Positions 9,479 to 62,523 of a stretch of DNA of 64,000 bases are shown here, piece after piece. The translations under genes were made by a program, and so were the position numbers. This DNA is from Lama glama (taxonomy: Eukaryota). A model generated the notes under the pieces. It ran no database searches and had not been told where the DNA came from. It saw nothing but the letters and a program-made list of their open reading frames with translations. Location: contig CM052829.1 of NCBI GenBank assembly GCA_028534125.1, forward strand, positions 1,426,001 to 1,490,000, read 5' to 3'. The stretch's first letter is position 1; each line of letters opens with the position of its first letter.

Positions 9479-22446
<12,968 letters not shown>

Positions 22447-30671: not shown

Positions 30672-30677
30672 TTTATT
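30672..30677 (-). terminator. KIF25 polyadenylation signal AATAAA
   Basis: tttatt on the + strand, about 75 nt after the KIF25 stop. Confidence 0.8.
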
Positions 30678-36800: not shown

Positions 36801-39800
36801 ACGTTTACACACATGCGCGGCTCAGTGACGCCCACTTCTCCTCGGTGTCCCCCCGCCCCTCAGGGGCGACCCTGCTGGGACCCCAGCCTGAGCCAGGCTC
36901 CTAAATCCCACTCATTCCAACACTCAGCTTGGTGTCGGGGTTGCCTGAAGGGAGTTCCTCTTCAGAACATCAGGCTAAGTAAAGCCTGTGTGAAATGATA
37001 AAACAGTCCCCATATTTTCTCTCGCTGTTTGAAAACCACTTCCCCATCACGTTTATGATCGCTGGCACTGCCGACTAGGACACGCTTAAGGCTGTAACGC
37101 GTTCTCTCACTCTGTTTCTCCAAGGGCTTGGGGTGTTCATTTCAGCCAGACTGTGCGGACGCCCCCCCAGCCCCCCAGCCCCCTGCGGTCCCACAGTTTG
37201 GGGTTATTTTAGTGCAACTCACTTCACAGAAGACAAGGACCCCTGGAGGGTCCCTGAATTTTCCCCAGTTGTGCTATTTAGTCCAAAACGTCAGTGAGAA
37301 GATGCAAAACACTGAAGACTATTTGAAAGAGGTTTGCAACACACACTGATAATCTTGGCCGTGAAGGTGCAGGCGAGCCTGGCCCACGGGCGGCTGAGCT
37401 GAGCCCAACCATCCCCTCTTACTGTCACCTGGGAGATTAAGATCCAAGCACAGGCCTGCCCTTGGAGATTCGGATTCTAATCAGACTGTTTAACCCAGGT
37501 ACCGCCACCTCTGTCCCCCGGGCAAACCAGGGTGTCACTCTGGCAACGTGGCCCTGACAGTATCCGATGGGTTCACACCTCGAGCAGGACGCAGAAGCCC
37601 CGGAGATCCGGGAGGCCTGGCCCCGAGGCAGGCTGTTCCATCCAGACAGAGGAAGACAGAAACCACACGGGGGGCAAAAACCCAGCAGGCCCCTCAGCTA
37701 GCACCCCGCGTGCTTTTCCTTGCAGAAGTAAAAGGTCTCAGCGCTTACAACAGAGTCTCCAGCAGTGCAGCTCTCACGCCCTCCCTGAGACGTGGAGGCA
37801 TTTGGTGGGCGGGCCGGGGGGTGTCCGGCTGCAGAGGACAAATTAGCCTTTACCGGGATCCCTCAAACCACCTCCGAGTGCAGGAAGAAGGCAGCCGGGA
37901 CTGAGAAAATGCCACCTGTTTCGTATTTGTGGTGGAAAAGCGGCTCGGGCAGCGGTCATCTTAACCACGATGCCACTTTTTATTTCTGGAATCTGCTTCC
38001 TGCAGAGATGCCTACTTTGAAAAAAGAGAGAATCTCCTATCATTTCCACTGGAAGAATTTTCTTGGGTGGATATAAAAACCCCAGTATCCTGGAAGCAGA
38101 GTTGAGGCAGAGACTTGATCGTAGCCGGCGGGGGCAGGGGTGGGCATGTGGGTGTGTGCAGAGAGCGACGCGCGTCCCCTGCTGACCCGACCTCTGGGGC
38201 CACGAGCCCCGGCCGCACCCGTGGTGTCAGACGCCCGAGCCCTGGGGCTGGAGCGCAGCGCTGTAATTACAGCTCCCAGCTGGCTGCAGCCTCTGCTGGG
38301 CAAACACAAACACGCCTTCTCAGGACGCTTGATGTCGGCATCTCCAACCAAACCATACTCTTCGAGTCACCCTGAGGTGGAAAGTCCTGGCTGTGTCTTA
38401 GTTAAGTCCCAGACCTGTTCACTTGATTGCTAAAAAGTGACTTTCACTCCTTGGTTACAACCACTGCCTTAGAAAGCAGGAGTCGGTTCCAGGGGTGGAA
38501 GGCTCGTTCCCAACGGGACAAGCCCCTCGGTCGGGTGTCAACATCCTTAACAGGCTTTAGAAAATCCAGGATGTGCCAGGAATCCCAGAGAGGAGGAAGC
38601 GCTGCCCCCTCAGCCTGAGGTCTGCGCATCACGCACCTCAAGTACCACCTGCACCCAAGGTGCCCGTGCTCACCTAACAATTGTTCCTCGCACCATGCTT
38701 CCTCCTTCCCCGCCACAGGCCTGCTCCACACTCACAGCAGACACTCAGACGCGGATGCCAACCTCTCAGCCTGCAGCTCAAGTGAAACCCACTGACATCT
38801 ACACGTGACGGTGATAATCGACCTTGAAGACGCCTTCACTCACCCGTCTAGGAAGGACACGAGCAGGGGGCGCACGTCTTCAAACACTGCTCCCTGAGAC
38901 TCTGCTGGGCCATAGACTCTGAGAGGCAAAGGGAAGTGATGCAGATTAGAAGAAAGCGAGTTACGTCCGTGTCCCGAGAAAAAGCGTCCCTACGTGTTTC
39001 TCATGTGAACCTCCCGGTGCAGTCAAGACTCACGTTTTTTGAACAGAGAAGGATTAATTTATTACTTTTCAAGCTGACGGAGGTTAAGGAAGAGTGAAAA
39101 GTGGTTTCCTCTGCTATAGGAATGTAGCAAGCACGAGCAAAGTTACAAATGCTTGCGAAGCAGAAAGAAAAAGCAAGAAGAGGAGGAACAAAAGGCACCA
39201 TGTAATTAGCCCATAACGGAGTTAACGCCGCCCAGCGGGTCCAACAACAACGACGCGGAAATCACACTCAGGCAACGTTTGATACGTGACACTTACCTGT
39301 TACCTTACGCTCCTAAGAATACCACTCTCCCAGACCCCAGGCTGGCTGGCTGAACACTAGCACGCATCACGGGACGGGAATGCCGGCTCTGGGAGGGGCC
39401 CCCGGCGCCGTCTGTGCTTACAAACACGTACATGAACCCAAGTGGGAAGTAACGTCCAGAAGCTGCAGGTCACGGCACGGCGGGAAGCGAGACTGGGCCT
39501 CCACTGGGGGGCCGGGGCCAGGGCCGGGCCACGCTGCCCAGCTCTGACAAAGCCGGTGGTTAGTCACGTTCCAGTTGAATGTGCTTTGATTCAAGCTCAG
39601 CTTTCTGAATTGCAGGTTTTTGTTCAGCTGGAACTGAATTTTTCTCTCCTGTCATCTTCAAAATGTGTCCTGACAGCCCGGAGATCCAGCTCATCTCTAG
39701 AAGCAGGACTGACATCAAGCCTCCGGGCTTTCCTTACAAAATGCTGCTCCACACGCGGCTAGAGGGCATTTAGAGCAAGTGGGATGGAGCTGAGCTCTTA

Positions 39801-42800: not shown

Positions 42801-45800
42801 GGAGGCGGCGTGAGCGTGCTGGGGAAACACCCGGGGTGGGGGGGGCTGCCGGGCAGGCGGTCTGTGTTCACCGCACCGCCTAAAGGGCGGGCGCACTCGG
42901 CCCGTCCGCTTTGGGGTTTTTCAGCCACTCTGCTACACGTGTAGCTGCATCTTGTGCTCTCAGGGGCATTTCCCGAAGTTTCCAAACAGCCACCATCTCG
43001 GCCTCGCTCTCTGCCCCAGCGTCGGTGCAGGGACTTGTGGTGCTTCATGCCCTTGTTTTCAGGAGAGCTCCGTATCCTCTGGGTCCGGTCCTTCATAAAC
43101 CGTGCGACTTCCAAACACTCCTTCCTGTGTGTGGCTCGTCTTCTCATACTCCAGGTAATACCATAAACAAAACGAGGGCTTTTCATTTTGATTCTTTCAT
43201 GGATTATGCTTTTGGTGGTGTTTCTCAGAATTCTGTGCTTAACCCAAGGTCACAAAGACTTTCTTCTGCATCAGCTTCTAAAAATGAAATGGCGTGAGAC
43301 TTCACATTAGGTCTAGTTTTCATCTCAGTTAATTTTTGCAAAAGGCATGACATGTGGGTGACCCTTCACTCCACTTTTGCCTCTGGACGTCCGACTGCTC
43401 CAGCACCACTTGCTGAAACACTGTCCTTTCTCCACCAAACTGCCTCTGCCCCTTTGCGATTGGCCAAAATGACAGGACAACGTGTACCTCTGACCAGCCG
43501 AACCCTGACACAGCGCTTACATTTGCGTTACTTTGCCTCACCTGCCACCGTGAAAGGCACTCACCTTTCAAAGGTGTATGTCTTATTAATCAAAGGGCGA
43601 CCAGGCCGACTGCATTCCACCAGGATGGTTTCCTAGTAAAAAAGAGTAAACAAACAAACAAACAAAAAAATGGTCATTCTGTGCCAGGGCTGCATTCATA
43701 ACACTGAGCAGCGGCTGGCGGAGCACAGCCCCGGGCCAGTCCGGCGGCCACCTCCTCTGTGACGAGCTTTGCTGGGACACAGCCCCACCGCGCGCACACA
43801 CTGCCTGTGGGGTTCAGTCAACAGTTTGCCGAGTCACTGAGACAGACACCATACGGCCCCAAAAACCACGGAGTTCACTCCCCGGCCCTTCAGAGGGAGA
43901 GTCTGCCAAGCCCTGACCAACAAGTCAGACCAGCAGAGAAACACAGAGGTCCCACCTGTAAGTTACCCGGCCAGGCAGCCCGGGTGGCCTGACCTTCCCA
44001 GGACGGCTCAGATGTTCATAAGGCAAAAGGGCTCCAACTCGGACACCGGTGTAATTATAACTGGTGGAACTAAAGGTTTCTTTTTCAAAAGCATCAACGT
44101 TTGATCTTGCTAAACTATTTCTTCAGTGACATCCTATGCTAAGAGAAGCAAAGGAAATTTCAGCAAGAAATGCACCTGGGTTTCACCAAGCAAAGGGAAA
44201 GAAATCTGAGCGGCTCCAATTCCAAACAAAATGCCAATCGTGAAGCAGAGCCCCGGGCAGAGGAGGATCTCCACGCCACGCGGCCGCAGCGCCGCGCAGC
44301 CTGCAGACGCCTGGCTGCTCCACAGTCGTAACTGCCCCGTCGTCACCTGCCTGACATCTCTCTCTGCAAAATAAATACATGTCCCAAAACTGGCGTATCT
44401 GGGTTTTGTGGACAAAAAACTGTTGCCTGCCATTCTAGTAAAGAACGAACGCTGCCTGCCTTCAAGGTGTCAGCCACTGCAGCCCCGGGCCGTGCCCCCG
44501 CGGGGACTCAGGATGGAGAAAGAGGAGGACACCGGCCCTAAACGTCCAGGTGCGCAGAACGCAGTGATGTCAGCGAGCTGAGACTCTTGCGTCTCCCCAT
44601 ACACAGAAAAGCACTAAAATTGTTAACTTGAGATGCTGTTTTTGTGATCAGCAGTAAGTTTTTGATGTTCGACTACATTTTTTTCAGTAAAACTACGTAC
44701 CCACCCCACGCACCTCGCCTCCCCAGAGCAGCCCCTCCTGAGAGGCTGTCTCCTGGGCTCGAGTCCGCAGTAAGGCCCCCGAATAAAGCGTAACTTGCAA
44801 CTTGGAGGCTGTACGCTTGTCTTCAGGTGGCAGTTTTAAAGGCACGGGCCGTGGAGTCCGCACCGGCTTGTTCTGAGGCTGCGGCTGTTAGTCAGTTACT
44901 CGCCGCAGAAAGCCAGCCGGGTCCTGGGCAGCTGGGGGAGAGGATGCGGCTGCACTCGGACGCTGCAGGGCCGCCTGGTGCTCTATGCTGAATCACCGGC
45001 GAGGTGAGCCTCCGCCGTCTCACGATCAGAGGTCAGTGCTCTAGGAATCGTTAGCCTTGGCTGCAATCGATTTTCAACTCAGCCTTTTCCCTGGAGTGTC
45101 TCTGCCTGGTGCCCCCTCCACACCGGCCGCCTTGCCTGCCAGGGGCCTTGTCAGCGAGCAAGCCAGTGGAGCGGCCCCAGCCATCCGCCAGCGAGTCTCT
45201 GCGCCCCCAGCCTCAGGCACGCCTGGCTTACTCCTGACATCACAGCCTTAAAAGTATTTCCAAAATGCAAACTCAACAAGAGGGAGCAGATGAAATCACT
45301 GAGGCCGGAGGGGAAGTTTAAGAAGGCGTGAGTGAGGCGGTGTGTGCAGTCTTAAGCGAGGGGTCACTTACGTCCTGATTTCAAGTGACCCACCGGACGT
45401 GTCCCTGGGGGTCCTTGGCTACCACAGCAGACAGTTTCAGGGGAACAAATGGGGACAGACACCAGTCACAGTGGCTTTGGCCTCTTGGGTGTGGTAGGGT
45501 GAGTGGCCAGGTCATGGATCGTGGCACACGGCTGCCATGACCGACTGGGACGGCCCTCTCTGACGACCACGGGAGGCCGTGCCTGTGCCCCAGTGTGGTA
45601 GTCCCCCAGGGGGCTGACTCTCTGGGGCGTCACTGACCTGGAGTCCATTCCTCCCCGGAGCCCTGTCACGCACAGGCAGCTCTCCCGGGAGCCGCAGTCC
45701 CGGGGCACTATCTCCCACCACAGGGAACACGTCGATCCAGCCACAGGCTCTGGCCACAGCTGCAGCCACGAGGACTCCGGTTTGGTGGCAGCTGGGCACC

Positions 45801-48800
45801 AGTGCATGGTTGGCCAGGCTGCCTCTCCTGAGGACCACCTCCCAGGAAGGCTCCCCGCGACTGAACCTGCACTTCCCCTCTTTCACGTCCGCGTGCCTGG
45901 AACAACGTGTGAGTCGCCTCACTTGTTTGGAAGGTGTCCCTTCTTTCCTGGGTTTTTAAGCGACGTTACCTTGCATGCTATTGACTTACGGGATTATTTC
46001 CATTCCCAGTGAACCTGGGTTAAGTAAATTACTGGCAAAAGCAGTCAGTCTCTGAGGATAACCTGCCCCCAAACAAACAAGCTAGAAGTGCGTGTGTCAC
46101 CCTTTGGTCGCTCACACGACAGATGCGTAGGGAGAGACGTCTGTGCCGCATCCAGAACCGAGTCTCAGGGCCAACAGAAGGACACACACCTGCCCGGCCA
46201 AGCACAGCCCAGCGATGCCGACAGTTTCAACAAATAAGTGACAGAGAACGACAGGGAGTGCCACTAAGGACCACGAAGAAGGACACAGATGTGGCGAGAC
46301 CAGTGAGACAGCGGCCCCCGTTGGACGGACACCAGGAAAGGCCCTTCTGAGGCCGCGGCGCGTACGCTGAGCGCGGAGGACGAGCAGGTGAGCATGTGCG
46401 GGTGGAAGAGCGCCTGGGTGGGGGAAGGGCACGTGCTGAGGCTCGGAGGCAGCACAGGGCTTGTCGGGTTCAAGGCCATCAGAGGGGACAATCGGGACCT
46501 CGTCCTGGGAAGTTTACGTTTGAGGTCCGAACGTGCTGTCCCAGAGGCAGTGCAGCTGAACCAGGAACATGTTCTTCCGCATCTGATTATCAAACCAGCG
46601 GATGTAAGTGAAATGACAGACACAAATGGGCGACCAAGGCTACAGTCCCCGAGAAGCAGGGCAGAAGCCAGACTCTCCATCTGAGGCTGATGTGTTCACA
46701 GGCTGAATCCAAGACTCGTAAGTGTGGAATTAGATTACAAACTGAAATGAAGTGCTGACTTACACATCCATACAAACTCAAACTCTCTTTAGACTTTTGG
46801 AAATAAAAACACAACGCAGAAGCCAAGGGTTAGAGTGTCCCAGAACAGGCCCTCGCGTTTTCAGCAGATCAGCCGACAGGAAGCCCTTCAGCAAACAGGT
46901 CTATTCAATTATAAAATGACTCAGATGCTGCTGGTTTTCCGCAACATAATCCAGAATGCCCCAATCAAAAGAAATTTTATCTTATTTTGATGGGTGAAGT
47001 ATTTTTTTAAACTCTCAAACTTCTGAGTTTGAAGACGCAGTGGAAATTTGACAGGGAGGGTGCAGACTGTCGGTAACAGAGAACCCCGGGGCTCAGCCCC
47101 CGGGGCGTCCTCCGGCGGACGGTTCCCGCAGCGGCCAGGTGCTCTCAGAGCTGGGGAACGTAGAAAAGGCAGGAACTTGACCACAAATTCTCCACGTCTT
47201 CACCCATAAAAGGCGAGGGTAGTAAAACGATCTCAAGGCCTCCATTTAATGAGGCATCTCAAGGCATCCCTAATAATGAGAATTAACTGGCCTCCTCCTG
47301 CTCGGCTCAGTCATCCCAGTCCTCCAGGCAACACACAGGGTATCGAACCATAGGAGGAAAACTCCTTTAAAGCGAGATTTTAAAGTGCTTATTTCCAGAG
47401 ACTCTGCCATAGGGATTGTATAATAAGCAACAACAGTTTTCAAGGCTTCTTTGTTTAAAAAAAAAAAATACAGCCATCACTCCATCCACTGACACTACTT
47501 CAAAAAGAGCTGCTGAAGTTTCCGACATGTCACCATGAGACTGACTCAGACGACAGGCCTTGGGGGAAAGTGCACGGGACTCGGGGGGCAGCTCGACGTG
47601 AGGGCACCTCAGAACCGTCACTGTGCTCCAGGGGCCCGCCACCTCCGCGTTCAGCAGAGACGACCAACATTCACTCGGAGGCCGGCACCCCCGTGCTCTC
47701 TACACTCACTCTGTGGCAGGCACCTCAAGGCTAGAATGCAGCCTCCGCCCAGCGCCTTACTGAGCTTTTCCTTACGGACACGCCCAAACACCCGCCAGGA
47801 GGAAGCAGCTGAACGCGCCGTCCCCCAGCCTTTCGACTCTCAGCCAGTCTTGTCCGGGATACGCTCGTACTCAGCCCGCCTCCGTGCGCTCTGGCGTGTT
47901 TTTAATTAAATATCAGACAACGCATCGTTCGATCTCAGTCTGTACATCTAACCAGTAAGGACTTTTGTTTTCCTTTTTGAAGTTTTTATTTTTATTGAAG
48001 TATAATCGGCTTACAATGGTGTGTCAGTTTCTGGTGTACAGCACAGTCACTCAGTCACACCCGCATGTGCACGTGCACGTACATAATCCTTTTCATGTTC
48101 CTTTTCACTATAGGCTATCACAAGGTGCTGAATATAGTTTTCTGTGCTGTGCAGCAGGACCTTGCTGTTTACCTATTTTCTATATAGCAGTTAGTGTCTA
48201 CAAACCCCAAACTCCCAACTTAACCCCCACCTCCTCTCTCCCCCTGGTAACCACAAGTGTGTTTTCTTCATCTGTAAGTCTGTTTCTGTTTTGCAAATAC
48301 GTTCATTCGTGTCTTTTCCTTTTCTTTTTTTCTTTTAGATTCCACATATACATGACATCATATGGTACTTTTCTATGTCTGGCTAACCTCACTCAGTATG
48401 ACGATGTCCAGGTCCATCCAGGCTGCTGCAAATGCCATCATCCTTTTTCATGGCTGAGCAGTATTCCACGGTATATATATACCACCACTTCTTTATCCAG
48501 TCTGTCGATGGACACTTAGGTGGCTTCCATGTCTTGGTGATTGTAAATAGTGCTGCTGTCAACACTGGGGTGCGTGTGTCTTTTCGGATTAGAGTTCCCT
48601 CTGGATATAAGCCCAGAAGTGGAATTGCTGGATCATATGGTAAGTCTATTTTCAGTTTTTTAAAGAATCCATATTGTTTTCCACAGTGGCTGCACCAAGC
48701 TGCATTCCCACCAGCAGTGTAAGAGGGTCCCCTTTCTCCACAGCCTCTCCAGCATTTGTCATTTGTGGACTTTTGAATGATGGCCATTCTGACTGGTGTG

Positions 48801-51800
48801 AGGTGATATCTCAGTGTAGTTCTGATCGCACTTCTCTGATGGTAAGCGATACTGAGCATTTCCCATGGGCCTCTTGGCCGTCTGTGTGTCTGCACTGGGG
48901 ACTTGCTTGCTTAGGACTCCTGCCCATTTTTGGATTGGGTTGTTTATCTTTTTGTTACTGAGTTGTGACAGGACCTTCCTCTGGCTGGTGGTGAGGTCAC
49001 AGGGTGGTGTCCTGGGAAACTCAGTCATCAGCCTTCTGCTTCCAGCCAGTCTGGCCTCTGCCTGCCGTGGTCAGCATGTTGTCACTGAGAAGGAACCGCT
49101 CCCGACTCCCTTTCTTCCCCTTCCTCCTCTTCTGGGCTTCCTCCTCGGGCAACGTGAGTCTTTAGACGTCAGTTTGAAAGTGGGAAAGATGCTGCTTTAA
49201 TGCTGAGAATCAGCACTCCCTCCCTGGGCCACAGCCACACATTTGGGGAGCCCTCACCATGGGCAGCAGACGGCCCGCTGCCACCCACAGGAGAGACTCA
49301 GGACAGGAAACCCCTACACAGACCAGCAGGGAGTCTCCCCACTGTTTCTTCAGATCGCAACCCCTCCCCCCGAAGCCCTCACACCCTGCAGCAGGGGCAC
49401 CCAACAATCCCCTTCAGGACACCTGGGGCTTTTTTTTAACATAGCTCTGTGCCATTAATCTTACCTTATAAAGTTGATACCAGCCAATACACGTGACATT
49501 TCCCTGGTGGTCTCCAGAATGCCTTTCCAGTGGCTCCTCCAGGTCAAGTTCAAAAGAGGACCAGCCCTGGTGGTCCGAGGCTTGTCAGCCCCTCTTGTCT
49601 GAGGCACCCCCACTCCCGTCCACTAAGGTTACTCATCGGCTGAAGGGACCAGGTCCTCTGTCCCGTGAGATGTCCCTCACTCTGACTTGGCTGCCTCTCC
49701 TTTAAAATGATGGAGGCCAAGGCTCGACTGGCGGCAGGGTCAGCCACACAGGGCTGCGGGTGGCCTGCTGCACCACGTCCAGGCCCCAATGTCCCCGAGG
49801 CACACTGTCGGTGGGTTGAGAGGGGCCCCCGCCCCCACTGTAAAGACCTCGTCAGCCCCTGGGGTCTAACACCTGCTGATGGCTGTTATCTAGAGCCATG
49901 AGGGGTTTCAAACGGGGTTTTCCTTCTTTTTTTATAAGCAACAGAAATTTATTGCTCACAGTTCTAGAGGCTGGACGCCCGAGATCATGGTACCAACACG
50001 ATCGTGCTCTGCTGAGCGTCCCCTCCAGCCGCAGATGGCTGGCCCTGGCTGCCCCCACCGCTGGACAGAGAGCCACCCTGCTCTGCTCTCTCCTTATAAG
50101 GGCACTGCCCCGCAAAAGGCAACTTTCTACTCTTATCATCTAGTCTGAATTTATTCTAGAATCTGCTCCTTAGAAAAACTCCCTCAACGGCTCATTTTCC
50201 CTGAAGTGCATTTCATACGGGAAGAACCGCGTAACGTTTAATTCTTTCTGTATCGTTCTTAAGGCTAACGGAGGGTGCTCTAGCAGGCTCCAAGGGAGAC
50301 AGTGAGGTTTACAAGTCATGACAATTACGAACCGAAGGCCTACACGAGTGTGTGTGCCAACCTGCCTCGGCCACCTCCTCAGCCCCCCGTCCTGCCCACG
50401 CCGCGGGCGTCCCACTAGGTGGGTCCGCGCTCTGCGACACGACCCCTGCCCCCAACGCCCCCTCGCTGTCTGGCACAGCCATGTCCAGGCCCACCCGACA
50501 CATGCGGACCCATGATGACCCCCGTGTCTAGAGACCACGTCTGGGTCCTCACTGCTGCTCCGAAGCCTTTTCAACAAAGACGAGAAGCGTGTGAGTTCCA
50601 GGGGGGCACGGAGCCGCGGCTCCCAGGAGGCGGGCCTGCTTCGGTCCGAAACCGCAGAGCCCTGCTTGGCCTGGTCAGACCTCACCTGTGTTTCCTTCCC
50701 TGGGCTCCAAGTTGAGGGCTCAGTCCTAGGGGCCCGGGCTGATTCGGGGGCCGAGCAGTGAGCGAGTGGAGTGACCGTCCTCACTCTTATGGCGGCGAGG
50801 CCCGGTGCGGGGGTAGCGCCCCGGGACCCGCGGGGCTGGAGCGGCCACGCTGGCCAGCAGGCCGTGCGTGAAGGAGGAGCTGTTCTATACCCGTTCAGAC
50901 CCAGAGCCGCTCTCAGGGGCGGAAAAACCGGGGAAACAGTTGAAGCACCAGACGGAAAGGTTTCAAACAGAACCTGTTAGGGGAGTCACTCACGTCGTCC
51001 ACGGCGTGGGCCACTGCTCCAGACACAGGGCTGCGGGGACAAAAAGACATTCAAACTGCGCGTCCCGGCAGCCTTGCTGCCCGCATCCACTCCCTCCCCG
51101 TCCCCTGACACCGTCTCCCACTTCTCTGTTTTCCACCCCTTTCTTATCTTCCTCTCCCCTCTCCCTGTTACTTTCTCTTGAGACTTTCTCTTTCTCTCCC
51201 TCTGGTGTTTTCTATCCCCCAGCGTGTCGTGTGGGAGGGGTGCAGACATCCTAGTCCCCCCTGCAGGCACAGCCTGGGTCAGAGTCTTGGGGGCGAGAGA
51301 TGCAGAAGGGAAGTTTTACCATGGACCTGGGCCTCTGAAGGCAGCCGTGAGTCCAGAAAGAGGCAACAGGTTTCCAAACTAAAATCAAATAATGTAAATG
51401 ATATGAGGGCATATAAATAGTTCATGAAGCCTCACGTGCACTTGTGAGAGGTTGAACAGCCCCGAGCAGCGCACCGTCCGTCGTGTCCCGTGAACTGCCC
51501 AGCTCCGCGCCTGAAGTGCGGCCACTGCAACTGGGGAGGCCACGCTTCTAATTTTGTTTAACTTTTATTCATTTAAAGCCATGTAACCACACGTGGCGGG
51601 AAGCTGCCTTATCAGGCAGCACACAAGGAGTTGTTTTTCTTTAATTTTTTACTGAAGTGTAGTTGGTGCACAATGTCAGTTTCAGGTGTACAGCACAGCC
51701 ATTCCTTTGTACATGTATGTAACTTTTTCAGATTCTTTTCCATTACAGTTCATCGTAAGAAACTGAATATGGTTCCCTGTGCTGCGCAGGAGGCGGCTGT

Positions 51801-52737
51801 TCATCTGCTTCGTGCAGGGCCGTGGGTGGCTGTTAACCCCCAACTCCTACCCCCCGCCCCTCCCCCGCTGGTAGCCACAGTCCGTGCTGTGTGTCTGTGA
51901 GTCTGGTTTTGGCTGGCAAATCAGAAGCAGATAAATAGTGTGACAAGGCAGCCTGTGAATACCACACTCACAAGAACATCACACTCCTGCCCCGCTGACC
52001 GTGGGCTCCCCTGCACCCGGCTGTCAGGGCTGGTCAACGGGGCACGCTCGGCACTCAGGCAGCAAAAAGAAAGTCTTGGAGGAAGAAGTTCCCAATCGCT
52101 TTCTGTTGGCTACAAAGGTTTGTTTCACACCAGGCTGACCAAGGGCTTCCTAAAGACCTTCCAAAGGCAAGTGTTAACTGTACTGCAGGAAGGTGGGCGA
52201 GACGCGGGCGAGGCCCTGAAGAGGAGGGGGGTGTGGGCAGGATGTGGGGAGGCCCTGGGATAAGCGTCAAGCCCCACGAGCAGAACTATGGGGGCAGGCG
52301 TGGACCCCCAGGGGCCCGCCTTGGGGACGCGGAGCATGGAGCCGGCGGTGGACTGCAGACTTCTGTGGGGGGTTTGCTTCACTGGGGAAAGAAGTGTGAT
52401 TTTTCAAGTAAACGGATTTCAGATAGTTGCGTGTTCTTTGTCAATACCATCAAAGCTTCCTCTAAGTCAGAAGTACCAGCCGAATCCTTAATAGTCCCCT
52501 CCGGGCAGCTGGGAGGGTCTGGAGCAAACCAAGAAAAATGCTCCCCGTCCAGGGAAAGGGCCGCCAAGAGCCTGGCCCTGCCAACCCCAGAAAGGAGCCT
52601 GACCCCCAGGCAGCAGACCCCGCATGGCACCCCTTTCTTGCTCCGACGTTTTAGCCACATTGTAGCCACGTTCCAGAGCGTCTGCTACCTACCCCACTTG
52701 TCATGACCAAGGCGGCTGCACCAGGGAGAGCGGCCCC

Positions 52738-52778
<41 letters not shown>

Positions 52779-55700
52779 ACACACACACACACACACACAC
52801 CCCCCCCAAAAGCAAATTACCTGTTCTGTGAACCTGGACCACGGAACTCGTCATCAAAGGGCAGCACAGGGCGGAGCCGGCAGTGCACGCGGATGCTGCC
52901 TCTCAGCTCCTACGACGGTGAGACGTTGTCCCCTGAGCACACGGGCCCGCAGACCCGACCCGCGAGGGCAAACCCGAGCAGCGCCTCCCCCGAGGTGTGA
53001 CCGCCGCGCTTCCTGCCACACCTCCACTTGTGGAAAACTCCCTACGCACTAGCGTCAGTATCCTGTTAAGCTTTTTAAAAATTCACCCTTAAATGTGTTC
53101 ACATGGCAAATAGTATCACTCGACCATAAGCACCAAGACAACAGCTTTTAACAGCACCCGAGGCTCCGTCTCCCGGGCGTTTCAGAAGGTCTCTGAAATC
53201 TGGTGCCAGGGCTCATCATCCAGTCCTTCCAGAGGGCCCGTATGAGCGGCGGCGAATGGGACGTGATGCTGTGGGGGTGGAGACAAAGATTAGGAACCGC
53301 CAGACCCGCTACATGGCACCGGGATGGCACCTCGCCCGGCCTGCACGGAGGGAGGGGCCTGACAGGGCGAGGGCTCACACTGCTTAGGAATACACATCAA
53401 AGTCACGTCCACGTAAGTAATGGTTACGTTGCTGCCCGGCGGTGCTCGGACGCCTGTAATGACGAGGAGGTCACCACCTCCCGACTGAGACTTGAGTCAG
53501 GGCTACACAGCTCCCCCGGGACCGTGCAGACCGCTTCCACCCTTTATCACTTCAGGGCCACACTGAAGAATTCTGTTCCTCTTCCGCAGGCCAGCTTGTC
53601 GGCCACTCCGCCCCGGCGTCCTCTGGAAACCAGCCTGTCCACGCATGCCCCCCGGCCCTCGCTGTCAGGGTGTGTCCTCCTTGGTCCTGAAATGGCCAAA
53701 ATCGACCCGGCCTGTTTTATCCTCCCTGAAGCGCTATGTCCGGAATGAGAGGCACATCCCTGGATGTGGGTGACAGCATGGCACAGAATGAGGCCACCTG
53801 CTTCTCTGACCTTCAGATCTTCTTCTGTCAGTGCAGCTGGACCAACCACTGGCTTCCTTGGCAGCCACTGACACACGTGACTGGGCCTGCTGGGGCTCCA
53901 CAGAAAACGCTACATCCCTGGTGCCCAGGGGACCCGCCCAACAGAGCATTGGCTCCTCTCAGCCCCTCGGACTACGGAAACGTCTCCGGGAAAGCACGGC
54001 AGACACCAGCGCGGATCAAACTGTCAGAGGTCCAAGCCCAAGCCAGAGCGCAGAGTTCTGTGGGAGGAGACCTGGCCTGCGGCGGGGAGACTGCACCGAG
54101 TCCCAGGACAGAAGAGGGGCTTGCGTCACAGAAGAGGGTGGGACGAGGCCAGAGAAACTGGGAGGAAGTGGGGGGAGGGGAGACGTCCGGTGACCTGGAG
54201 TGACCAGCAGACCTCACAGGGAGGGGTGGCCGTCTTCACGTTGTCTGTACCTGGGCCACCAGACACGGGTCAGGGAAGTCTGGAGGGTGGGGGCCACGAC
54301 CCCAGGCCAAGCTGGTCACCTGAGCTTCTGAGCACCAAGGCGGGCACCAGGGTCCACGAGAAGTATGGTGACAACGCAGACGATGGTGATGTCAGCTCCA
54401 ACACCCTAGGCTGTTTCCACCTAAACACTGACTTCTGCCCACTGGGGACCATGGCTGCCGGCAATGACTGTCACCTTCCGCACCTTCCCAGACACCTGTG
54501 CACCTGGCGCTCTGTGCACAAGGCAGGTTGAGCCTGCCACTCCAGCCTGCGCAAGTATTCTGGGACACTCTTTGCTATTCAAGGTGTTTGCTCTCAATTC
54601 CTTCCAAACGTGTACCCGTAAGTAAAACAAACATGCCTTCTTACTTCTGTCAAGTCACTCGTAGTTAAGACCCAAAGAGGCAGGAGCAGGGCCCAGAGGA
54701 CGTCCCCGGGAGCCTCACCCCGTTGTCACCCATGCATGGACCGCGGGCCTGGTGGACGGGGCTCCTTGCGGGAAGGGATGCGACACCTCGGGTACCCTGT
54801 CTCCACTGACGCGTGCTCCACTGCTGAGGGCTGCCCTCAGCTCTTATGCTGATGCTCTGTCCATAAATATCTCCCGGGAGGCTCTTTCTGAGGCTGAACG
54901 AGGACCAGACACACCGCATCTCCAATGTCTGTTTCATTTAATACCAGAAGAGGAGACAAGAGCATTTTTATTCTCAGAGCCCCTGCTGCTTCCAGTGAGC
55001 ACCCCCCTCAGAGGCCCCACTGAAGTCTCCCCCTTGGCTCCCGGCAAGGTTACCCCACGAGTCTGGGAGCGCGGCCCCTCCTACTGTTTGAAAACTGGGT
55101 AAATGGTCTACACTGACCTATTCACGGGCCTATACAGCTTCTCCAGCCTCGGGTCCCACAGGAGTGAGGGGGCGGGGGCGGCAGTCTCGTCTGCAGGTTT
55201 TCCAAGGGCCACGGAGCTCAGAGCACGAGGCGCACTGTCATTTGGGGCAGGGAGTCTCCCCCGGGCCATCAGTCCACTTTGGACCTGGCTCCGTCTTGGG
55301 AAGCCCTGCTGGTGAAAGCTGCAGCCCCTCAGCACTCTGGGCCCCTCCTGCCTCGCCTGGTCTGGACACAGATCGGGGGCAGTGCTGCCATGACGAGCAG
55401 GTAAGGCCACGCTGCGAGAGGCCAGTGCACAGCCGGCGCTCAGCCACGTCATCACTGTCAGAGGGCTGGGCCACAGGAGCACAGGAGCCACGAATGAGGA
55501 CCCGGGGACGGTCAGCATGGGGACGGGAGGGACTCTGAGAAAGCAGGCTTCTCGGGCTTCAGAAAAACGGAACGTGGAGGCACCGGCCAAGGTCCTCCCT
55601 TTTCACCGTGGGTAACAGTTCAACCCCATGGAAGCAAACTCGTCAACTGAATCTTCATCCCCAGCAGCCTCGGGCTGGCAAGTGGGAACCAGAGTCTCAA

Positions 55701-58700
55701 CTTTAAACGTCAACAGGGTCTCAGATCTCACTCCTTTAAGTCAGCAGGTGAGGGCGTAGCCCAGAGGAGGAGCGCGTGCTTGGTGTGCATCAGGTCCTGG
55801 GTTCGATCCCCGGGACCTCCGTTAAGTGGAAAAAATGGCTCAAAAAAAAGTCAGCAAGTGAAAAAAAGAGAAGCAGCTGATGAGAGCTGGCAAGGAGGGG
55901 CTGCAGCCCCCTACCACCGGCGTCTCAGGGGCACCTCAAGCTCCGAACAGCTCCTGGACCCCCGCTCCGGCCTCTCCCTCTCTGCCGGTCTCCCTTTCCC
56001 GTCTGCTGCTCACCCTCACACCCCCGGCCCAGCACGTCCGGTCAGGGGGTCCCACAGGCGCGGCTCTGGTCACCTCTGCCCCTGTGCACACCAGCCTGGC
56101 CCGGGCCACCGCCCCTCTCCAGCTCACACGAGGCCTCCCGCCCTGATGTGCGGTCCCCGGCCGTTCCCTGCTGCTTCCTCTGAACCATGGGGTAGACAGG
56201 GTCTCCGGGGACGAGGGGCACCTACCACCAGAGTGTTGTGCAGCCGCCTGCGCTCACGCCTCTCCTGCTGGTATCGCTCGGTCATCTCCTGCAGGGACCG
56301 CTCCAGACACCCTGCCTCCAATGGCCCCGCGGCTGAAAGAGCCAGTCCACCCACAGTTGGAGCAGCTTCCCCGACATGGGTCCCCAGGCCACGGCCACTC
56401 CTTCCTGCCCCCAGCACTGGGAACATGGGCCCTGGGCACTTGGGTCACTCAAAACAAAGTATCTGTCAGCCTCCTAGAAAGACATGTGTCTCAGGGTCGT
56501 GGCAGAAAGGACGTCCACTACGTTCCCGACTTCATAGCCCGCTTGGTGTGCAGACGAGGGGAGGACCAGGGGAGGAAGGGGGATCTAGGGGGCTGTCAGG
56601 TGGGGAGTCACCCCTGTGGGTTCCAAGGACCAGAGCTTAAGGTGATCAACGATCCCCCAAGTAGAGGAGGAGGCTGTGAAATGAAGGGAGAGCTCCAGAC
56701 TTCAGGAAAACCTGACACGGGCTCAGCTTGAGGACAGGGTCAAGGTCAAGAAGGTGTAGTGAGGTTAGCAGAGCAAAGGAGCACCTCCCTCGGGGCGGCA
56801 GCGCCGGAGAGTGGAGGCGCTGGGCCATCTGGGACCTGCTTCTGCCCTCGGGGTCAAAGGAGATGGACTCTGAAACCAGACCGGCTCTTTGTCGGTCAGG
56901 GCCACCGTCTTACGTGGCAGGGCCTCGTGGCAGAGTGGAGCCCTCTGGACGGCCGTCACTATTTCAGAAAGACAGTCCCGCTGAGCATCCTGGTACCTCC
57001 GGAAAAGGCCCAGAGACCAGGAGTGAAGCACCTCCACATCTCGTTTCAGTCTCTGCAAAACAGGAGCAGACACAAGTGATACGATGACTGTCACCACTGG
57101 TCATCACGGCGCGACCACACGAGCGCTACGGTAACGCAGGAGCTCGATCTGTCCTTAACCAGAGGCTCTGGCCGCTGTCGCGGGCGGAGTGCTTCCACGG
57201 TGCTCCTGCCCAGGCTCCCTTCCCGACGTTCTGATCCAATAGACCAGGGGCCAGCTCTTCCCAAAGCAGCATGTGTGACTGTATGTTTTACACATCGGAC
57301 GTATTTCAGAAAATCGAGCCCCCCGCCCGCTCCTCCAAGCGAGGACAGCTCGCTCGCTGCAGGTGGAGAAGCACTCCCCGTGGACGTTTCTCCGTGGGCT
57401 GTTTACTTCCCTGTGACTCTGGCACCATCCCACGGTCTCTGCGTCACCCGCCTGCCTTTCACGGGAACGAAAGCTCTGATGTGCTCTCCAGACCACCCCC
57501 TGGAAGCCGTGCTATCCGGAGCCAGGGTGCGAACAATGCAGGGCGGGGTATAAACGTGCAGAATGGAATTCCAGGTCCACAAACACAACAGCGTTCAGAG
57601 AACTTTGGGAACAATGCAACTGATAAGTCGTATCTTACACGTAAGGCCCCATTTTTACTTCCTGAAATTACTTGCAAGTTTTTTGGCTTGAAGACACGTC
57701 CACAGAACGAAAGAACGCAGGTGCTACTGTTTAACGCCGCTATCAAATGCTCAAGTCACAAAACTTAACTGGACTCAAACAGATGTTCTTTGTCTCTTTA
57801 GTTAAGTCTTTTTTGCTATAAAATGGAGATAATTTCATTTGTTCGGGGAACATTTTGATAAAACATCAAAACTACATTGAATTTTAAAGTATTTTTTATT
57901 ATATGACATGCAGATAAAGTTATATACTTTATTCAACGATGGACTGACTTCACTCAGTTGGAAGAGAATAAAGAATTAATTCCATATAAACCCATTCTAA
58001 ATACACTTACGCAGTTCATGGCTGGGGGGCACACAAACAAACCGCTCCTAAGGGCCAGCTAATCTTGTCTGCAGATGGAGGTATCATTGTTGTAATGATG
58101 ACCTTTTTCCTTCTACATTGTTTGCAACAGAAGGTGAACAAAGCTCTTAATCAGCGGTGTCCACCTTGGAGAAGGGGGTGGGTGTGTGGAATCCGGCTTC
58201 CCAACGTCTCTCTGACGAGCCCCACTTCGCCAGACACGTACAAACCAGGTTTCCACCACTTGACAGCAGTGACAGTGAGAGCAACTGTGACAGAACATTC
58301 GACAACCCTCTAAGTGCAGCACGGCCTTGGGAAACGGACGTGATGCATCGTGGCCAAAACGCCTCTGCCTGTTTCTGCACAGGCTCCCCATCATTTTTTG
58401 AGGTTTGACCTTCTATTTACTGTGGATGAAAAATACTGCGGCCACATCAGCAAACAAGGATGCTGTGCTATCACGTCATCAGCCGCTGCCACTGCTCCCG
58501 ACAGCGAGCGGAGGGAACTCAGCACGCAGACCAGCAGGCAGCCGGGCTCCGCAGCGCCCCCAGCGGTGCCCCCTCAGGGGGCTCAGGATGGGGAAGAACA
58601 GGGCGCTGGCCCTGGATGGCCAGGTGCACGTCAAAGGAGTGATTTCAGGGGCCCAGACCTTTGCGCCTTCCCAGGCCTAGAGAAGCACTAAATCCCTTAA

Positions 58701-61700
58701 CTTGAAATACCTGGTTTTCTATAATTAACAGTCATCTTTTGATGTTCCAACTACCTGGCCTTCGTTGCAAAAACAACGCCTACATCTCCTGGCTCCTCCC
58801 TTGCCGCTCTGGAACAGACTCTTAGAGCCATCCGAGAGGCTGTGTCCCGGCTCCCGTCCTCAGGAAGTCACCGAATAAAACAAAACTCTCAACTTCCAGG
58901 TTGTGCATTTATTTCAGTCAATATTGTCAGAAAGCACAACTCCCAGAGTGAAGACCATCTGCAACTGATTATGAAAACGGTGATAATTTTATTAATGCAC
59001 AAGACCAGGTCAGTCACCTGTGATGGAAAATCCACGCCAGCTACACTGAGCGGCTTTGCTTCCTTAAACTAAGGCTGCTTTTCACTGCATAAGAGAAGAT
59101 CTATTCTGACAGGCACCGCATACAAAGTCCACGGGGAAGTGGCCCCCGCCAGCGACTGAGCACAAGCAGTTGCCATGTCTGCGAGGATGGACCTCGGGGG
59201 CATTTACCTGAGCGACGAGGCGGAGTCGGCTCGCAGCCAGGGGCCCAGGTCTCTGCAGGGGCTTCTGGTCCCCGCACTGCACGTGCACCTGGGTGGTCTC
59301 GCCGCCACTTTTCTTGATCATTTCTTGGTACTGTTGTGCAAGAAAAAAAGAAGATGATTCAGAGTCTTAAATCCTCGGAAATGAAACAGGTGCTTTTTCT
59401 CTTGGAGGAGAACACTTACCGACTGTCCACTGGGCCCCAGTCTGCACATCAGGGGCTGCTGACCAGGCTGCAGGCAACTTCAGACCCACCCTGCGGGGGC
59501 TGTGTGGGCACCAGGGTCCCAGGCGGGGTCTGAGGGCACGAGAAGGGCCGGCGCACAGGGAACAGCAATGGACAGGCCCAGAGGGTGGGGGGACCAGCAG
59601 CTGGACAGAAGCCTAGAGGCTCCCACCGGCTTTGGTGAGAGGGGTGAGACACGGGGGTTTAAAGACAGGACTGAGGCCGAGGGAGACACTCAGTGCAGGT
59701 CCATGTGCAGAGATCCCCCTGGGTGCTTCAGGGGGAGGATAGGTGTGGAGGGACAGACCTCACAGCGAGGCGGGAAGCCCCATAAAAAGACAGGGAGGAC
59801 CCCCAGGCAGGGCCACTACTCTCCTGCCAGCACCATCCAGTTCCCTGGCCCAGAGGCTCTATCTCAATTTTTGCCTTTGAACCGGCTTACTTACCCCTAA
59901 AATTCTATTGGTTCCCTGAGCTCACTTCTGATTGGTTATTTCCTTTACTCCTGATTGGTCCATTTGTAGTACTTCATTTGCATGGAGCTCACGCCTGATT
60001 GGTCCAACTTCCTCACTCCTGATTGGTCCATTTCCCTCACTCCTGATTGGTCCATTTCCCTCACTCCTGATTGGTTATTTCTCTCCCTCCTGATTGGTCC
60101 ATTTCTACAAAGCTTGTTCCTAATTAGTCAACTTTCGTTACGTATCATTTGTATATCATGTTGCAAAGTGTAAACTGGCAGCCTCTAAAAGCCTGTGTAA
60201 AGCTACAGACGGGGTCCAGAGCTTGGAGCGTTAATTCCTCTGGGCCTGCTGGCGTAATAAACCTGAGTTCTCCAACTCTCCGAGTGCTGGTTGGTCTCTC
60301 ACCCAGATCCAGGTTGCTGTCACAACTGAGCTGTAACACCGGGCTGTAACACATATTTCCGCAACAGCAGGAAGCCAGGGGGTGGTCTGGACGTCAGACC
60401 GTCACAGCAGGGACAGATGGATGGGTCCACACACACTCAGATGACCCTGACAGGACAGGACCGTGGGGGCATGAGACAGGCCCCTTACAGCTCCTGGGAG
60501 GGACACTGGCCCGAGCTGCGGCCATGGAGGGGCCAGGAGGTGCCCCTGTCCTGTGGCAAAATTAACAAGCTGGGATTTCTGCTTTGTTTGGCTGTGTTTC
60601 CCACGGAGTTTATTTAGGTGTCTGTGTTGTCACACTGTTCTTAAAAGCCAGCAACCACCGCCAAGAGTTTCTCCCTCTGATCGGCATCCCACGCCTCCAC
60701 CCAGTGAAAACACAGGTCAAACAACGGCTGGGGGTCAGAGTGGGAACACGTCACGCAGACACAGAGGATCCGCTTCTAGCGGCTCGAGGGGCCGAGCTAA
60801 CCACGTCGGACCTCGAGTGGGAGCAGGAGATGTGGGCTACAGAGACGAAGATGCTCTGTCTCTTACTTATTGAAAAAGACTGCAGGGGACTTAGTACAAG
60901 TGCCCCACAATTCACAGGCTTTATTGGACGTGGCATGTCTGATGGCCTTAAACGTAAAAAGTTTTTTCACCTAAATGATGCTTAGCAAGACAGCTGGTGT
61001 TCCCCAAACTGACAGCACATCACAAACAGATCTAAGCGGCGCTGCTCTGTGCGCTGACCCTGCAGGCGGCCTGCGGCCCCCACAGCACTGGGCTGGACAG
61101 CCACTCCAGCGGTTCGGCAGCCACAGTCCCAAGGGACACCTGCGGTGACCCGAGCAGCACAGGGGGCCTGTGTCCAGGACGCCGGCCTCACCAGCTCTGT
61201 GAAGTGCAGTGGAGACAAAGAGGGGTCAGCTTATGGAAGCTCAGGCTTAGACGGGCCGGTGTTTGAGACAGGCCACCTTACACAGGTGCCGGGATGTGCC
61301 AGTAAATCACCAGCTTAAAAATGAGCCAAGAAACCCATATTCCCTTAATTTAAGAGGCGGTACAGATAGCCCTACAGTAATCAGCAAATTTAGTGCAACT
61401 GTTTTCAATGAACCTGAAGGGGAGTCAAGAGTCTGCAGACGGCTCCCACTGAGGGGCTCAGACCCCACAGAGGTGGAATTTAAGGATGACACTCCAGCAT
61501 CGGTTATTTAATGGGGGCATGTGTGTCCCTAATCCGCTGTGATCAAGTACCACACACAGGGGGTAAAACAGCAGAAATGTTCTTTCTCCCTCCTGGAGGC
61601 CAGGCTTCCAGAATCATCGAGGTGTGGGTGGAGTTGCATGCCCCTGAGGCTGAGGGGCTCCTTCCCACCTCTTGCGGCCTGTGTCGGCGTCTCCCGATGT

Positions 61701-62523
61701 CTCCCTGCTTTCCTTCACATCACTGCCACCTCCCTCTTATCAGGACACTTGGGGGCATTGAGGGGCCCCCAATAGCCCAGCATCACCTCCCACCTCAAGT
61801 TCCACCATGCCTGCCGAGACCCTCTCCCCAGACAAGGTCACATCCACAGGGTCCAGAACTGGAACCTGGCATCTTTGGGGCCACTTTTCGGCTCACCAAA
61901 GGCAGCAACGGCGAATCACACAGGAGTAAGACAAGTCAGCCTCCACCTAACATTCTCCACTTGTTCTTCACTGTTCCTTCCTTCCCACCGTGAGGAGCAC
62001 GCCTGCGGGAGACGTGGGACAGAGGTGTCTGAGGGCCCCCTTCTCTGTCTTGGCGAGGCAGGCAGATGGTGTGGGCAGGACTGCTCAGAGGCTTGTCTCT
62101 CGGGCGAAGGACGAGGCCGCAGTGACCTCAGCGCAGGCTGCAGTGGAAGCGCCCCGCACGCCGACGCCTGCACTGGGATGGAGTGAGCCCGGACCTAGGT
62201 CATCCCCAGGACAGCCGGCCAGATGGCGCCGGCACCTCACTAAATTGTCACTAGTGCCTCTGGGCAGATGAGCAACAGCCAGGAGCCAAGCCCGGCTCGA
62301 GTAAGAAGACACATGAAACATCAGCGAAAGCGTCCCCACTGGACGGAAAACAGCAGGAGCATGAGCCCCCACCCCTCCCCGGCAGAGGCAGACTGGGCTC
62401 TGCAGCACGGCGGCCGGCCCCGGCCCAGCTCAGCCCCAAGACGGCTGAGCGCCTTACCTGCGCCAGCCTCAGGTGGAGAACAGCATTTTCTGTTTCTGCT
62501 TCCACTAGTCTCTCTTCTTTCGC
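30753..62523 (-). CDS. KIF25: Kinesin-like protein KIF25 (kinesin-14), 5'-partial; complement exons 62523-62458,59330-59208,57052-56914,56332-56226,52909-52821,51030-50994,43632-43565,38918-38844,36601-36452,35491-35315,34184-34033,32675-32469,32115-31960,30892-30753; 1686 nt, 561 aa
   Basis: Consistent GT-AG phases and no stops. Neck RRRLHNTLVELRGSIRVHCRLRP, P-loop AYGQTGSGKS, switch I HADSSRSH, switch II DLAGSE, HIPYRNS-x-LT and GGDAK. VYGPAESQ and EVYNND are KIF25-like. Adjacent to FRMD1. Confidence 0.94.
31960..32115 (-). CDS. KIF25: KIF25 exon (VSGVTGSALRETSLINRSLAAL...HIPYRNSTLTHFLQDAL)
   Basis: Acceptor gcttccccag; donor G|GTACCT, phase 1. Confidence 0.96.
32469..32675 (-). CDS. KIF25: KIF25 loop-10 insert and switch II exon (DRQSDQ...SKLQLVDLAGSECV)
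   Basis: Acceptor cctacctccacag; donor G|GTGAGA, phase 1. Confidence 0.92.
34033..34184 (-). CDS. KIF25: KIF25 switch I exon (SVQRAVELM...HADSSRSHLVITVTL...CST)
   Basis: Acceptor ccctctgccag; donor G|GTGAGT, phase 1. Confidence 0.95.
35076..35162 (+). mobile_element. Short tRNA-derived SINE (camelid-type), diverged
   Basis: GGGGGGTGAGAACAGCTCAG (A-box-like), GCATGCATGAGGTTCTAGGTTCGATCCCCAG (B box), A-rich tail. Confidence 0.8.
35315..35491 (-). CDS. KIF25: KIF25 exon (LLAENPSRHPEVDVSVVEVYNNDICDLL...VSGLTR)
   Basis: Acceptor cctcctccag; donor GA|GTGAGT, phase 2. Confidence 0.95.
35700..35940 (-). mobile_element. LINE-1 3' UTR fragment
   Basis: tgaagtgtagtcgacttacaa...gtttcaggtgtacagcaaag...tgaatatagttccctgtgct, homologous to the L1 3' end near 48000. 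Confidence 0.85.
36452..36601 (-). CDS. KIF25: KIF25 P-loop exon (YDVCIMAYGQTGSGKSFTMLG...GIIPRAAGEVF)
   Basis: Acceptor atttcag; donor AG|GTACCG; Walker A motif. Confidence 0.96.
38844..38918 (-). CDS. KIF25: KIF25 exon (VYGPAESQGAVFEDVRPLLVSFLD)
   Basis: Acceptor tttgcctctcag; donor GG|GTGAGT, phase 2. Confidence 0.95.
40410..41350 (+). mobile_element. Degraded old LINE-1 ORF2 fragments
   Basis: gaatttagtcaagtagcaggatgcaaaattca...aaatcagtagctttc; tgttcttggatacgaagactca; ctgggaaaagtagctgcagcttacatcgcagacaaaagg. Confidence 0.7.
42039..42527 (+). mobile_element. Solo ERV LTR (ERV1-like), copy A
   Basis: TGT...ACA termini, CCTATATA TATA-like box, AATAAA at about 42481, flanks gttc/gtac (4-bp TSD with one mismatch); homologous to 58421 and 44407. 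Confidence 0.85.
42560..43480 (-). mobile_element. Degraded old LINE-1 fragments, GC-shifted
   Basis: ggattatgcttttggtggtgtttctcagaattctgtgcttaacccaaggtcacaaagacttt; ctccagcaccacttgctgaaa. Confidence 0.75.
43565..43632 (-). CDS. KIF25: KIF25 exon (ETILVECSRPGRPLINKTYTFE)
   Basis: Acceptor tcttttttactag; donor AG|GTGAGT, phase 2; K-x-Y-x-F-[DE]-x-V motif continues into the next exon. Confidence 0.9.
43709..43915. mobile_element. MER58-like hAT-Charlie MITE
   Basis: gggccagtccggc...ggacacagcc...acggcccc...ggcccttcagagggagagtctgccaagccctg follows the MER58A layout. Confidence 0.65.
44407..44832 (+). mobile_element. Solo ERV LTR (ERV1-like), related subfamily
   Basis: TG...CA termini, perfect GTTT 4-bp TSD, AATAAA at about 44782; shares ctcaggatgg, cacagaaaag and gagaggctgt blocks with copy A. 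Confidence 0.85.
47965..48960 (-). mobile_element. 5'-truncated LINE-1 (ORF2 C-terminus plus 3' UTR)
   Basis: Minus-strand translation RYHLTPVRMAIIQKS-x-x-x-KCWRGCGE, LPYDPAIPLLG and AALFTITKTWKPPKCPS-x-x-WIKK; frameshifted; T-rich tail. Confidence 0.95.
48965..49085 (-). mobile_element. ERV LTR fragment abutting the L1 5' truncation
   Basis: ggtggtgaggtcacagggtggtgtcctgggaaactcagtcatcagccttctg resembles artiodactyl ERV1 LTRs; family not assigned. Confidence 0.45.
49932..50110. mobile_element. MaLR LTR fragment
   Basis: tataagcaacagaaatttattgctcacagttctagaggctggacgcccgagatcatggt...ccttataagggcact. Confidence 0.75.
50994..51030 (-). CDS. KIF25: KIF25 37-nt micro-exon (PVSGAVAHAVDD)
   Basis: Acceptor tctttttgtccccgcag; donor GAC|GTGAGT; converts phase 2 to phase 0 as required. 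Confidence 0.85.
51465..51625. mobile_element. MER3-like hAT-Charlie MITE
   Basis: ctgaagtgcggccactgcaactggggagg...taattttgtttaacttttattcatttaaa...ccacacgtggc. Confidence 0.65.
51635..51915 (-). mobile_element. LINE-1 3' UTR fragment
   Basis: actgaagtgtagttg...gtttcaggtgtacagcac...aactgaatatggttccctgtgctg. Confidence 0.85.
52739..52800. repeat. (AC)n microsatellite, about 31 units with one interruption
   Basis: Read directly. Confidence 0.98.
52821..52909 (-). CDS. KIF25: KIF25 neck/beta-1 exon (ELRGSIRVHCRLRPVLPFDDEFRGPGSQN)
   Basis: Acceptor gtcgtag; donor AG|GTAATT, phase 2; IRV-x-CR-x-RP motif. Confidence 0.93.
55747..55847 (+). mobile_element. Short tRNA-derived SINE (camelid-type) with 9-bp target-site duplication
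   Basis: GGTGAGGGCGTAGCCCAG...GTCCTGGGTTCGATCCCC, A tail; AAGTCAGCA at 55738-55746 and 55848-55856. Confidence 0.88.
56226..56332 (-). CDS. KIF25: KIF25 neck coiled-coil exon (LERSLQEMTERYQQERRERRRLHNTLV)
   Basis: Acceptor ctctttcag; donor GTG|GTAGGT; kinesin-14 R-x-x-LHN neck motif. Confidence 0.93.
56914..57052 (-). CDS. KIF25: KIF25 stalk exon (RLKRDVEVLHSW...EIVTAVQRAPLCHEALP)
   Basis: Acceptor ctcctgttttgcag; donor C|GTAAGA, phase 1, matching the next exon. Confidence 0.8.
58421..58923 (+). mobile_element. Solo ERV LTR (ERV1-like), copy B
   Basis: Colinear with copy A over its whole length; AATAAA at about 58874; 3' end approximate. Confidence 0.85.
59208..59330 (-). CDS. KIF25: KIF25 stalk exon (YQEMIKKSGGETTQ...RLRLVAQ)
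   Basis: Strong polypyrimidine acceptor cttctttttttcttgcacaacag; donor CAG|GTAAAT; 123 nt, phase 0/0, open. Confidence 0.75.
59744..60366 (+). mobile_element. Solo ERV LTR with tandem CCAAT-box array
   Basis: Eight ATTGG motifs in ~24-nt units, octamer, TATA-like ctctaaaag, AATAAA 60256-60261, duplicated GCTGTAACAC, ends ...GCAACA; 5' boundary uncertain. Confidence 0.75.
59900..60105. repeat. Tandem ~24-nt repeat (CTCACTCCTGATTGGTCCATTTCC)
   Basis: ATTGG at 59907, 59931, 59954, 59998, 60022, 60046, 60070 and 60093. Confidence 0.92.
61525..61900. mobile_element. MLT1 (MaLR) LTR remnant
   Basis: caagtaccacacacagggggtaaaacagcagaaatgttctttctccctcctggaggccagg...aggtcacatccacagg. Confidence 0.75.
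62458..62523 (-). CDS. KIF25: KIF25 stalk exon (AKEERLVEAETENAVLHLRLAQ)
   Basis: Acceptor ggttgcag; donor CAG|GTAAGG; phase 0/0; coiled-coil-like composition. Confidence 0.82.

Follow-up and report, generated by a model that had tools for sequence, protein, structure and literature searches.

The KIF25 gene in this 64,000-nucleotide stretch of Lama glama DNA (the window) is very probably the normal, spliced, full-length version carried by a South American camelid. It would encode a 586-residue kinesin-14 with stalk, neck and C-terminal motor that is predicted to travel to microtubule minus ends and to cross-link microtubules. By the same reading, the human reference protein is a derived remnant whose start lies eight exons further downstream. 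Loss of the stalk, the neck, the RxRP-bearing strand and the motor's small N-terminal lobe, together with a leucine-to-serine exchange in switch II, makes it likely that the human protein is no conventional minus-end motor. The gene in the window is ordinary and has an existing annotation, and the human truncation was described in 2019. To that description (Mudge et al. 2019) the analysis adds that the lost exons encode not the stalk alone but also about 60 residues of the motor core. The remaining value of the analysis lies in this structural reading of the human loss and in a hint of repeated decay among primates.

Gene model, transcripts and genomic setting

All 14 KIF25 exons found in the window lie on the minus strand, are intact and carry canonical splice sites. 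The most upstream, U1 (62458..62523), is the second coding exon and encodes a well-conserved N-terminal helix (consensus fraction 0.79 in 48 orthologues). It is followed by U2 (59208..59330), a stalk exon that is proline-broken in camelids and was spliced to the next exon in three of four RNA runs, and by U3 (56914..57052), a stalk helix with heptad periodicity supported by frame and RNA contigs. U4 (56226..56332) holds the distal stalk and the kinesin-14 neck helix, and was joined to U3 in three and to U5 in all four of the RNA runs. The neck-motor junction and the first motor strand with its RxRP motif are encoded by U5 (52821..52909; frame and structure alignments), the N-terminal motor lobe by U6 (50994..51030; frame and match to the RefSeq alpaca model), and the lobe as far as the second strand by U7 (43565..43632; frame), which is kept in bonobo models. 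Further downstream, M1 (38844..38918; frame and BLAST to human) is the VYGP exon, the first one common to the human protein. It is followed by M2 with the P-loop (36452..36601; motif and frame), M3 of the motor core (35315..35491; frame), M4 with switch I (34033..34184; frame), M5 with a long low-complexity loop and then the switch II sequence DLAGSE (32469..32675; motif and frame), and M6 with microtubule-binding helices (31960..32115; frame and BLAST), an exon skipped in human isoform 2. The last coding exon, M7 (30753..30892; frame), encodes a short basic tail and a TGA stop, and the letters AATAAA 76 nt past the stop (30672..30677, minus strand) form a candidate poly(A) signal.

A sequence-only reading of this DNA had described seven in-phase, stop-free upstream exons encoding about 210 residues, and the count held: U1-U7 comprise 629 nt or 209 codons, with AG acceptors, GT donors and compatible phases on all seven, and together with M1-M7 they form a stop-free frame of 561 codons. 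The motifs of the neck, the first strand and switch II (DLAGSE) were likewise found where that reading had put them, and the P-loop, switch I and switch II are all intact in the camelid model. The crude chance of 209 stop-free codons is 0.00025; stronger evidence for the exons comes from RefSeq identity and spliced RNA contigs. The 561-residue product is identical at 554 of 561 positions (99%) to the 586-residue Vicugna pacos KIF25 isoform X7 of RefSeq (P0002), through which U1-U7 are already annotated, and this match and the spliced contigs led to rejection of U1-U7 as chance open frames. Exon U3 as a query matched eight proteins, all of them camelid KIF25. The named top matches of the long-form search were KIF25 or hypothetical proteins.

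The RNA evidence comprises contigs, rather than reads, from four runs of three studies among the 24 runs listed, and derives from a close relative that differs at 4 of 139 nt in U3 and 2 of 107 nt in U4. Within the portion compared, namely U3-U4 with the adjoining exons U2 and U5, the U3-U4 intron was skipped exactly in three of the four runs. The loose ends of the contigs corresponded to the start of U5 in all four (1 mismatch in 30, by eye) and to the end of U2 in three (2 mismatches in 27-30, by eye). U2, U3, U4 and U5 are thus joined in the RNA of the relative, which connects the stalk and neck exons with the exon of the first motor strand. One contig of 2141 nt contains U3, U4 and 1770 bases on the motor side; judged by length only, 1251 would suffice to arrive at the stop. 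Use of an alternative U3 donor at 56785 lengthens the stalk by 43 proline-rich in-frame codons, and the same extension occurs in a Camelus model (P0007). In all four runs contigs also run into the intron between U4 and U5 (56225-52910), where a stop is met 33 codons in, so part of the RNA may not encode the full motor. Retention of this intron would yield a product of stalk and neck only.

The N-terminus within the window is not complete, contrary to the sequence-only reading, as the eighth upstream exon, which carries the ATG, lies on an unplaced contig. This exon, U0, spans 72 nt (24 residues) with a phase-0 GT donor (G000:C479702:4607-4678; L005 1501-1572), bringing the upstream exons to eight; no match to it was found in the window or in the adjoining 40 kb of upstream chromosome sequence. 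As judged only from phase, identity and an overlap of 7 nt at the ends, contig C479702 probably belongs in a 500-N gap just past the window, about 1.2 kb beyond its end (L001 3210-3709). The ATG exon sits in a CpG-rich stretch of this 9.1-kb contig. A repeat in intron U6-U7 (about 47980-48970), which resembles a LINE-1 end, has a copy on the same contig (77% identity over 1 kb). An LTR-like stretch that contains a poly(A) signal and short CCAAT-box-like tandem repeats can be seen by eye in intron U1-U2 (about 59860-60370).

The gene order in human is AFDN-KIF25-FRMD1. Downstream of KIF25, FERM_N and FERM_M exons were detected on the plus strand at 13-18 kb of the window, within a FERM-domain gene (about 9300-22500) that stands tail to tail with KIF25 and is presumably FRMD1. 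Upstream, a 15-residue match to the afadin PDZ domain (E=0.011) lies on the minus strand about 39 kb from U1 (L004 9400-9528). KIF25 is thus placed between an afadin match and a FERM-domain gene, consistent with the human order.

Structural elements lost from the human protein

The camelid motor occupies residues 172-575 of 586 and is therefore C-terminal. The best single-sequence structure match was KIFC3 (5wde), followed by KCBP, and the alignments begin in the neck, from residue 161 for KCBP, 144 for Kar3 and 147 for Ncd. With a profile of 50 long orthologues, kinesin-14 structures stood in the top 15 rows, and the alignment with the stalk-neck of Ncd and Kar3 started at profile position 111-122. 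These structure and profile alignments place the neck in U4. The strands are named here after established kinesin structure. U5-U7 encode the first strand with its RxRP motif and the rest of the N-terminal motor lobe, about 60 residues of the catalytic core. By spacing, the neck-motor junction corresponds to G347-N348-I349-R350 of Ncd, as given in a figure legend of PMC3266953, and minus-end motility requires the neck and its link to the core according to an excerpt of PMC9474454. A fold search returned kinesins at about 20 Å rmsd and was uninformative; designed repeat proteins, obtained as PDB matches of the neck exon alone, were rejected as chance.

The stalk had been described as coiled-coil-like, and long helices are predicted for it. 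Heptad periodicity was significant in one of four camelid segments (residues 85-123, p=0.007, uncorrected) and in two of four profile segments (also uncorrected); prolines break the camelid stalk, and the U1 helix, conserved as strongly as the motor (0.79), has no simple heptad period. By analogy with kinesin-14 biology, the stalk helices would oligomerise as a coiled coil and the neck would act as a lever arm, with the full-length protein most likely moving to microtubule minus ends and cross-linking microtubules. Without the parts needed to oligomerise and to set direction, and with some of the core sheet gone, the human product would probably not be a working motor, and may keep a microtubule-binding or other role.

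Comparison with human KIF25 was based on two records, Q9UIL4-2 / NP_005346.3 (isoform 2, 332 residues) and EAW47476.1 (305 residues); the 332 residues plus the 52 of the skipped exon give 384, the length of human isoform 1. The BLAST alignment begins at human residue 31, opposite camelid residue 234, and the 30-residue human leader had no significant match. Both human records begin at the VYGP exon, in agreement with the sequence-only reading, which placed the human start just before VYGP after a short unrelated peptide, and both have serine for leucine in switch II (DSAGSE for the canonical DLAGSE). Coverage of PF16796 extended over its positions 2-155 in the camelid and 64-155 in the human protein; this family and BLAST were used since the best-stretch coordinates of the Pfam Kinesin domain fail to separate long from short forms. 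The proposal that the human protein is a truncated derivative is borne out, and was published in 2019. The relevant parts of that report (Mudge et al. 2019, PMC6886504) describe eight upstream human KIF25 pseudoexons that are conserved across vertebrates and called untranscribed in higher primates, at least two of the eight being clearly pseudogenic, and infer that the human molecule is truncated or possibly a pseudogene. Its section 11 and one row of its supplement file 3 do not name the structural elements lost, about which supplement files 1 and 8 may say more. A literature search that covered few subscription papers and was judged from listings yielded no paper on the timing of the KIF25 loss or the elements lost.

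The truncation is still under-appreciated, as judged from part of a 2025 review (PMC12439720) which lists KIF25 as the sole kinesin-14 member with an N-terminal motor (N-kinesin), a label in keeping with the truncated human reference and not with the vertebrate protein. Excerpts of human-cell screens report knockdown or knockout phenotypes and antibody signals for KIF25 (PMC10917660, PMC11784366), so the short human product may do something. Given that part of the catalytic core is lost in human, knockdown phenotypes and the reported tetrameric tether need a check of which form was studied.

Retention of the long form is not a special property of the window species, an idea that was rejected. 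Among the best 120 of 2159 matches, long KIF25 is annotated across amniotes, in ungulates, carnivores, bats, rodents, xenarthrans, marsupials, birds, turtles and crocodiles, as well as in orangutans and Old World monkeys, macaque included. A strict motif of neck plus first strand was present in 141 of 237 retrieved records, many of which are isoforms or fragments. Leucine occupied the switch II position in 229 of the 237 and serine in two, both human; one further record (capuchin) was degenerate and five lacked the motif. Among the best 120 matches of each search, KIF25 of hamster, vole, deer mouse and gerbil appeared and none of Mus or Rattus, which is a lead and not a loss.

Possible primate decay, camelid divergence and oligomeric state

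The 384-residue human form might in principle reflect an annotation gap, with humans also making a long KIF25 whose upstream exons were missed. Short models do coexist with long ones in orangutan (373 residues) and macaque (323-374 residues), so shortness alone is weak evidence, and a long human record could hide in the main primate cluster, 15 of whose 60 members were listed. This explanation is nevertheless highly improbable, as the GENCODE curators examined the eight exons and, in the part of their report used here, found at least two clearly pseudogenic (PMC6886504), the bonobo RefSeq models join U1 directly to U7 in frame and skip the neck and first strand, and no long record of Homo, Pan, Gorilla or a gibbon occurred among the best 120 of either search. 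The records of gorilla, gibbon and capuchin are also short, several of them having been projected from the human model. Of the motor columns that are conserved in non-primates, macaque departs at 3 of 132 and orangutan at 4 of 132; human and bonobo each depart at 6 of 97, gibbons at 9 of 127 and 10 of 131, and capuchin at 21 of 126. Except where a change is shared with macaque or orangutan, the positions affected in gibbons differ from those in African apes. A protein tree of 16 rows put Old World monkeys and orangutans on terminal branches of 0-0.02 and gave gibbons, African apes and capuchin longer paths; in this tree the motif used had cut two gibbon rows shorter than the others, and capuchin was misplaced. 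The capuchin and gibbon models (P0161, P0155, P0219) have changed at many conserved positions of the motor, capuchin switch II included, which in these predicted sequences suggests pseudogenisation outside the human line. More generally, the bonobo, gorilla, gibbon and capuchin models combine a short form with a motor that changes faster, and the orangutan model is intact; these predicted proteins and gene models suggest relaxed constraint in short-form primates, perhaps more than once. A far-reaching version of this idea holds that KIF25 decayed repeatedly and independently in gibbons, in African apes with humans and in capuchin, with the full motor kept in orangutans and Old World monkeys. 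The human product would then be a non-motor remnant, the 'N-type kinesin-14' of reviews would not exist, and the functions credited to human KIF25 as a tetrameric motor would be those of the full-length form or have some other source; this version is possible and on balance rather doubtful.

A different concern is that the camelid gene is itself decaying, or encodes mainly a weakened cross-linker, given its broken stalk, changed neck junction and an intron U4-U5 kept in many transcripts. The camelid stalk contains 7-8 prolines, where the median for 50 orthologues is 0.5 and 25 of the 50 rows have none, and its predicted helix breaks at 64-75 and 124-135. In addition, the camelid branch of the protein tree measures 0.48 against 0.15 for horse, and 17 departures fall on columns where conservation in other species reaches 85% or more. 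The junction (52909-52890) reads G-S, where asparagine is found in 138 and serine in 7 of 148 records and Camelus keeps asparagine; the G-S junction may affect lever-arm coupling. All of this could point to decay, as could the intron-retaining contigs, but all 14 exons are intact with canonical sites, and the camelid motor departs at only one of 132 columns at least 90% conserved, the camelid row having helped to define those columns. Moreover, the stalks of pig and carnivores are proline-rich too, and serine is also found at the junction in loris and squirrels. Decay of the camelid gene is thus unlikely, and a normal full-length gene remains the preferred reading. The claim that this species keeps the ancestral motor stands for the exons and fails for the stalk, which with its 7-8 prolines is not ancestral; such a proline-broken stalk makes a poor ancestral model.

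Compatible with a normal full-length gene is the further proposal that full-length KIF25 is a bipolar tetramer, tethering antiparallel microtubules and tetramerising through its N-terminal helices, instead of a dimer of the Ncd kind. The dimeric state put forward in the sequence-only reading is not supported by the present data. Kif25 is termed tetrameric in the title of Decarreau et al. 2017, while solved kinesin-14s with such a neck, for example Ncd, are dimers in the portion of PMC3266953 consulted. The macaque stalk is predicted as continuous helix over residues 9-125 and 129-169 (pLDDT mostly 70-90), although the AlphaFold models are of low confidence overall (mean pLDDT 55 and 58, poor in the motor) and the stalk helices alone were used. 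The well-conserved U1 helix without a simple heptad period would suit a different packing. A complex prediction with four copies of residues 1-180 scored 0.04. A macaque cDNA was reportedly used in the 2017 study of Decarreau et al. Taken together, the tetramer is a serious possibility, if somewhat short of an even chance.

Comparison with known KIF25 proteins and kinesin-14 motors

Relative to isoform X7 of Vicugna pacos, the eight upstream exons, the neck and the motor are alike; the window model has seven substitutions, and its ATG exon is off the chromosome on an unplaced contig. With human KIF25 the motor exons M1-M7 are orthologous, and the human protein differs in lacking stalk, neck and first strand and in having serine for leucine in switch II. 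The eight upstream exons in the consulted parts of Mudge et al. 2019 (PMC6886504) agree in number with U0-U7 of the present model; they are described there as untranscribed in higher primates, whereas RefSeq has intact long models for orangutan and Old World monkeys. Full-length KIF25 of macaque, orangutan or horse set against the human form would offer a direct comparison.

Among solved structures, KIF25 resembles KIFC3 (5wde), KCBP (3h4s), Kar3 (4etp) and Ncd (2ncd) in having a C-terminal motor that follows an LHN...ELRG neck helix joined to the first strand. It differs from the solved kinesin-14s in being almost devoid of an N-terminal tail, in carrying about 50 low-complexity residues inserted ahead of the switch II strand, and in being reported, in the title of Decarreau et al. 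2017, as a tetramer.
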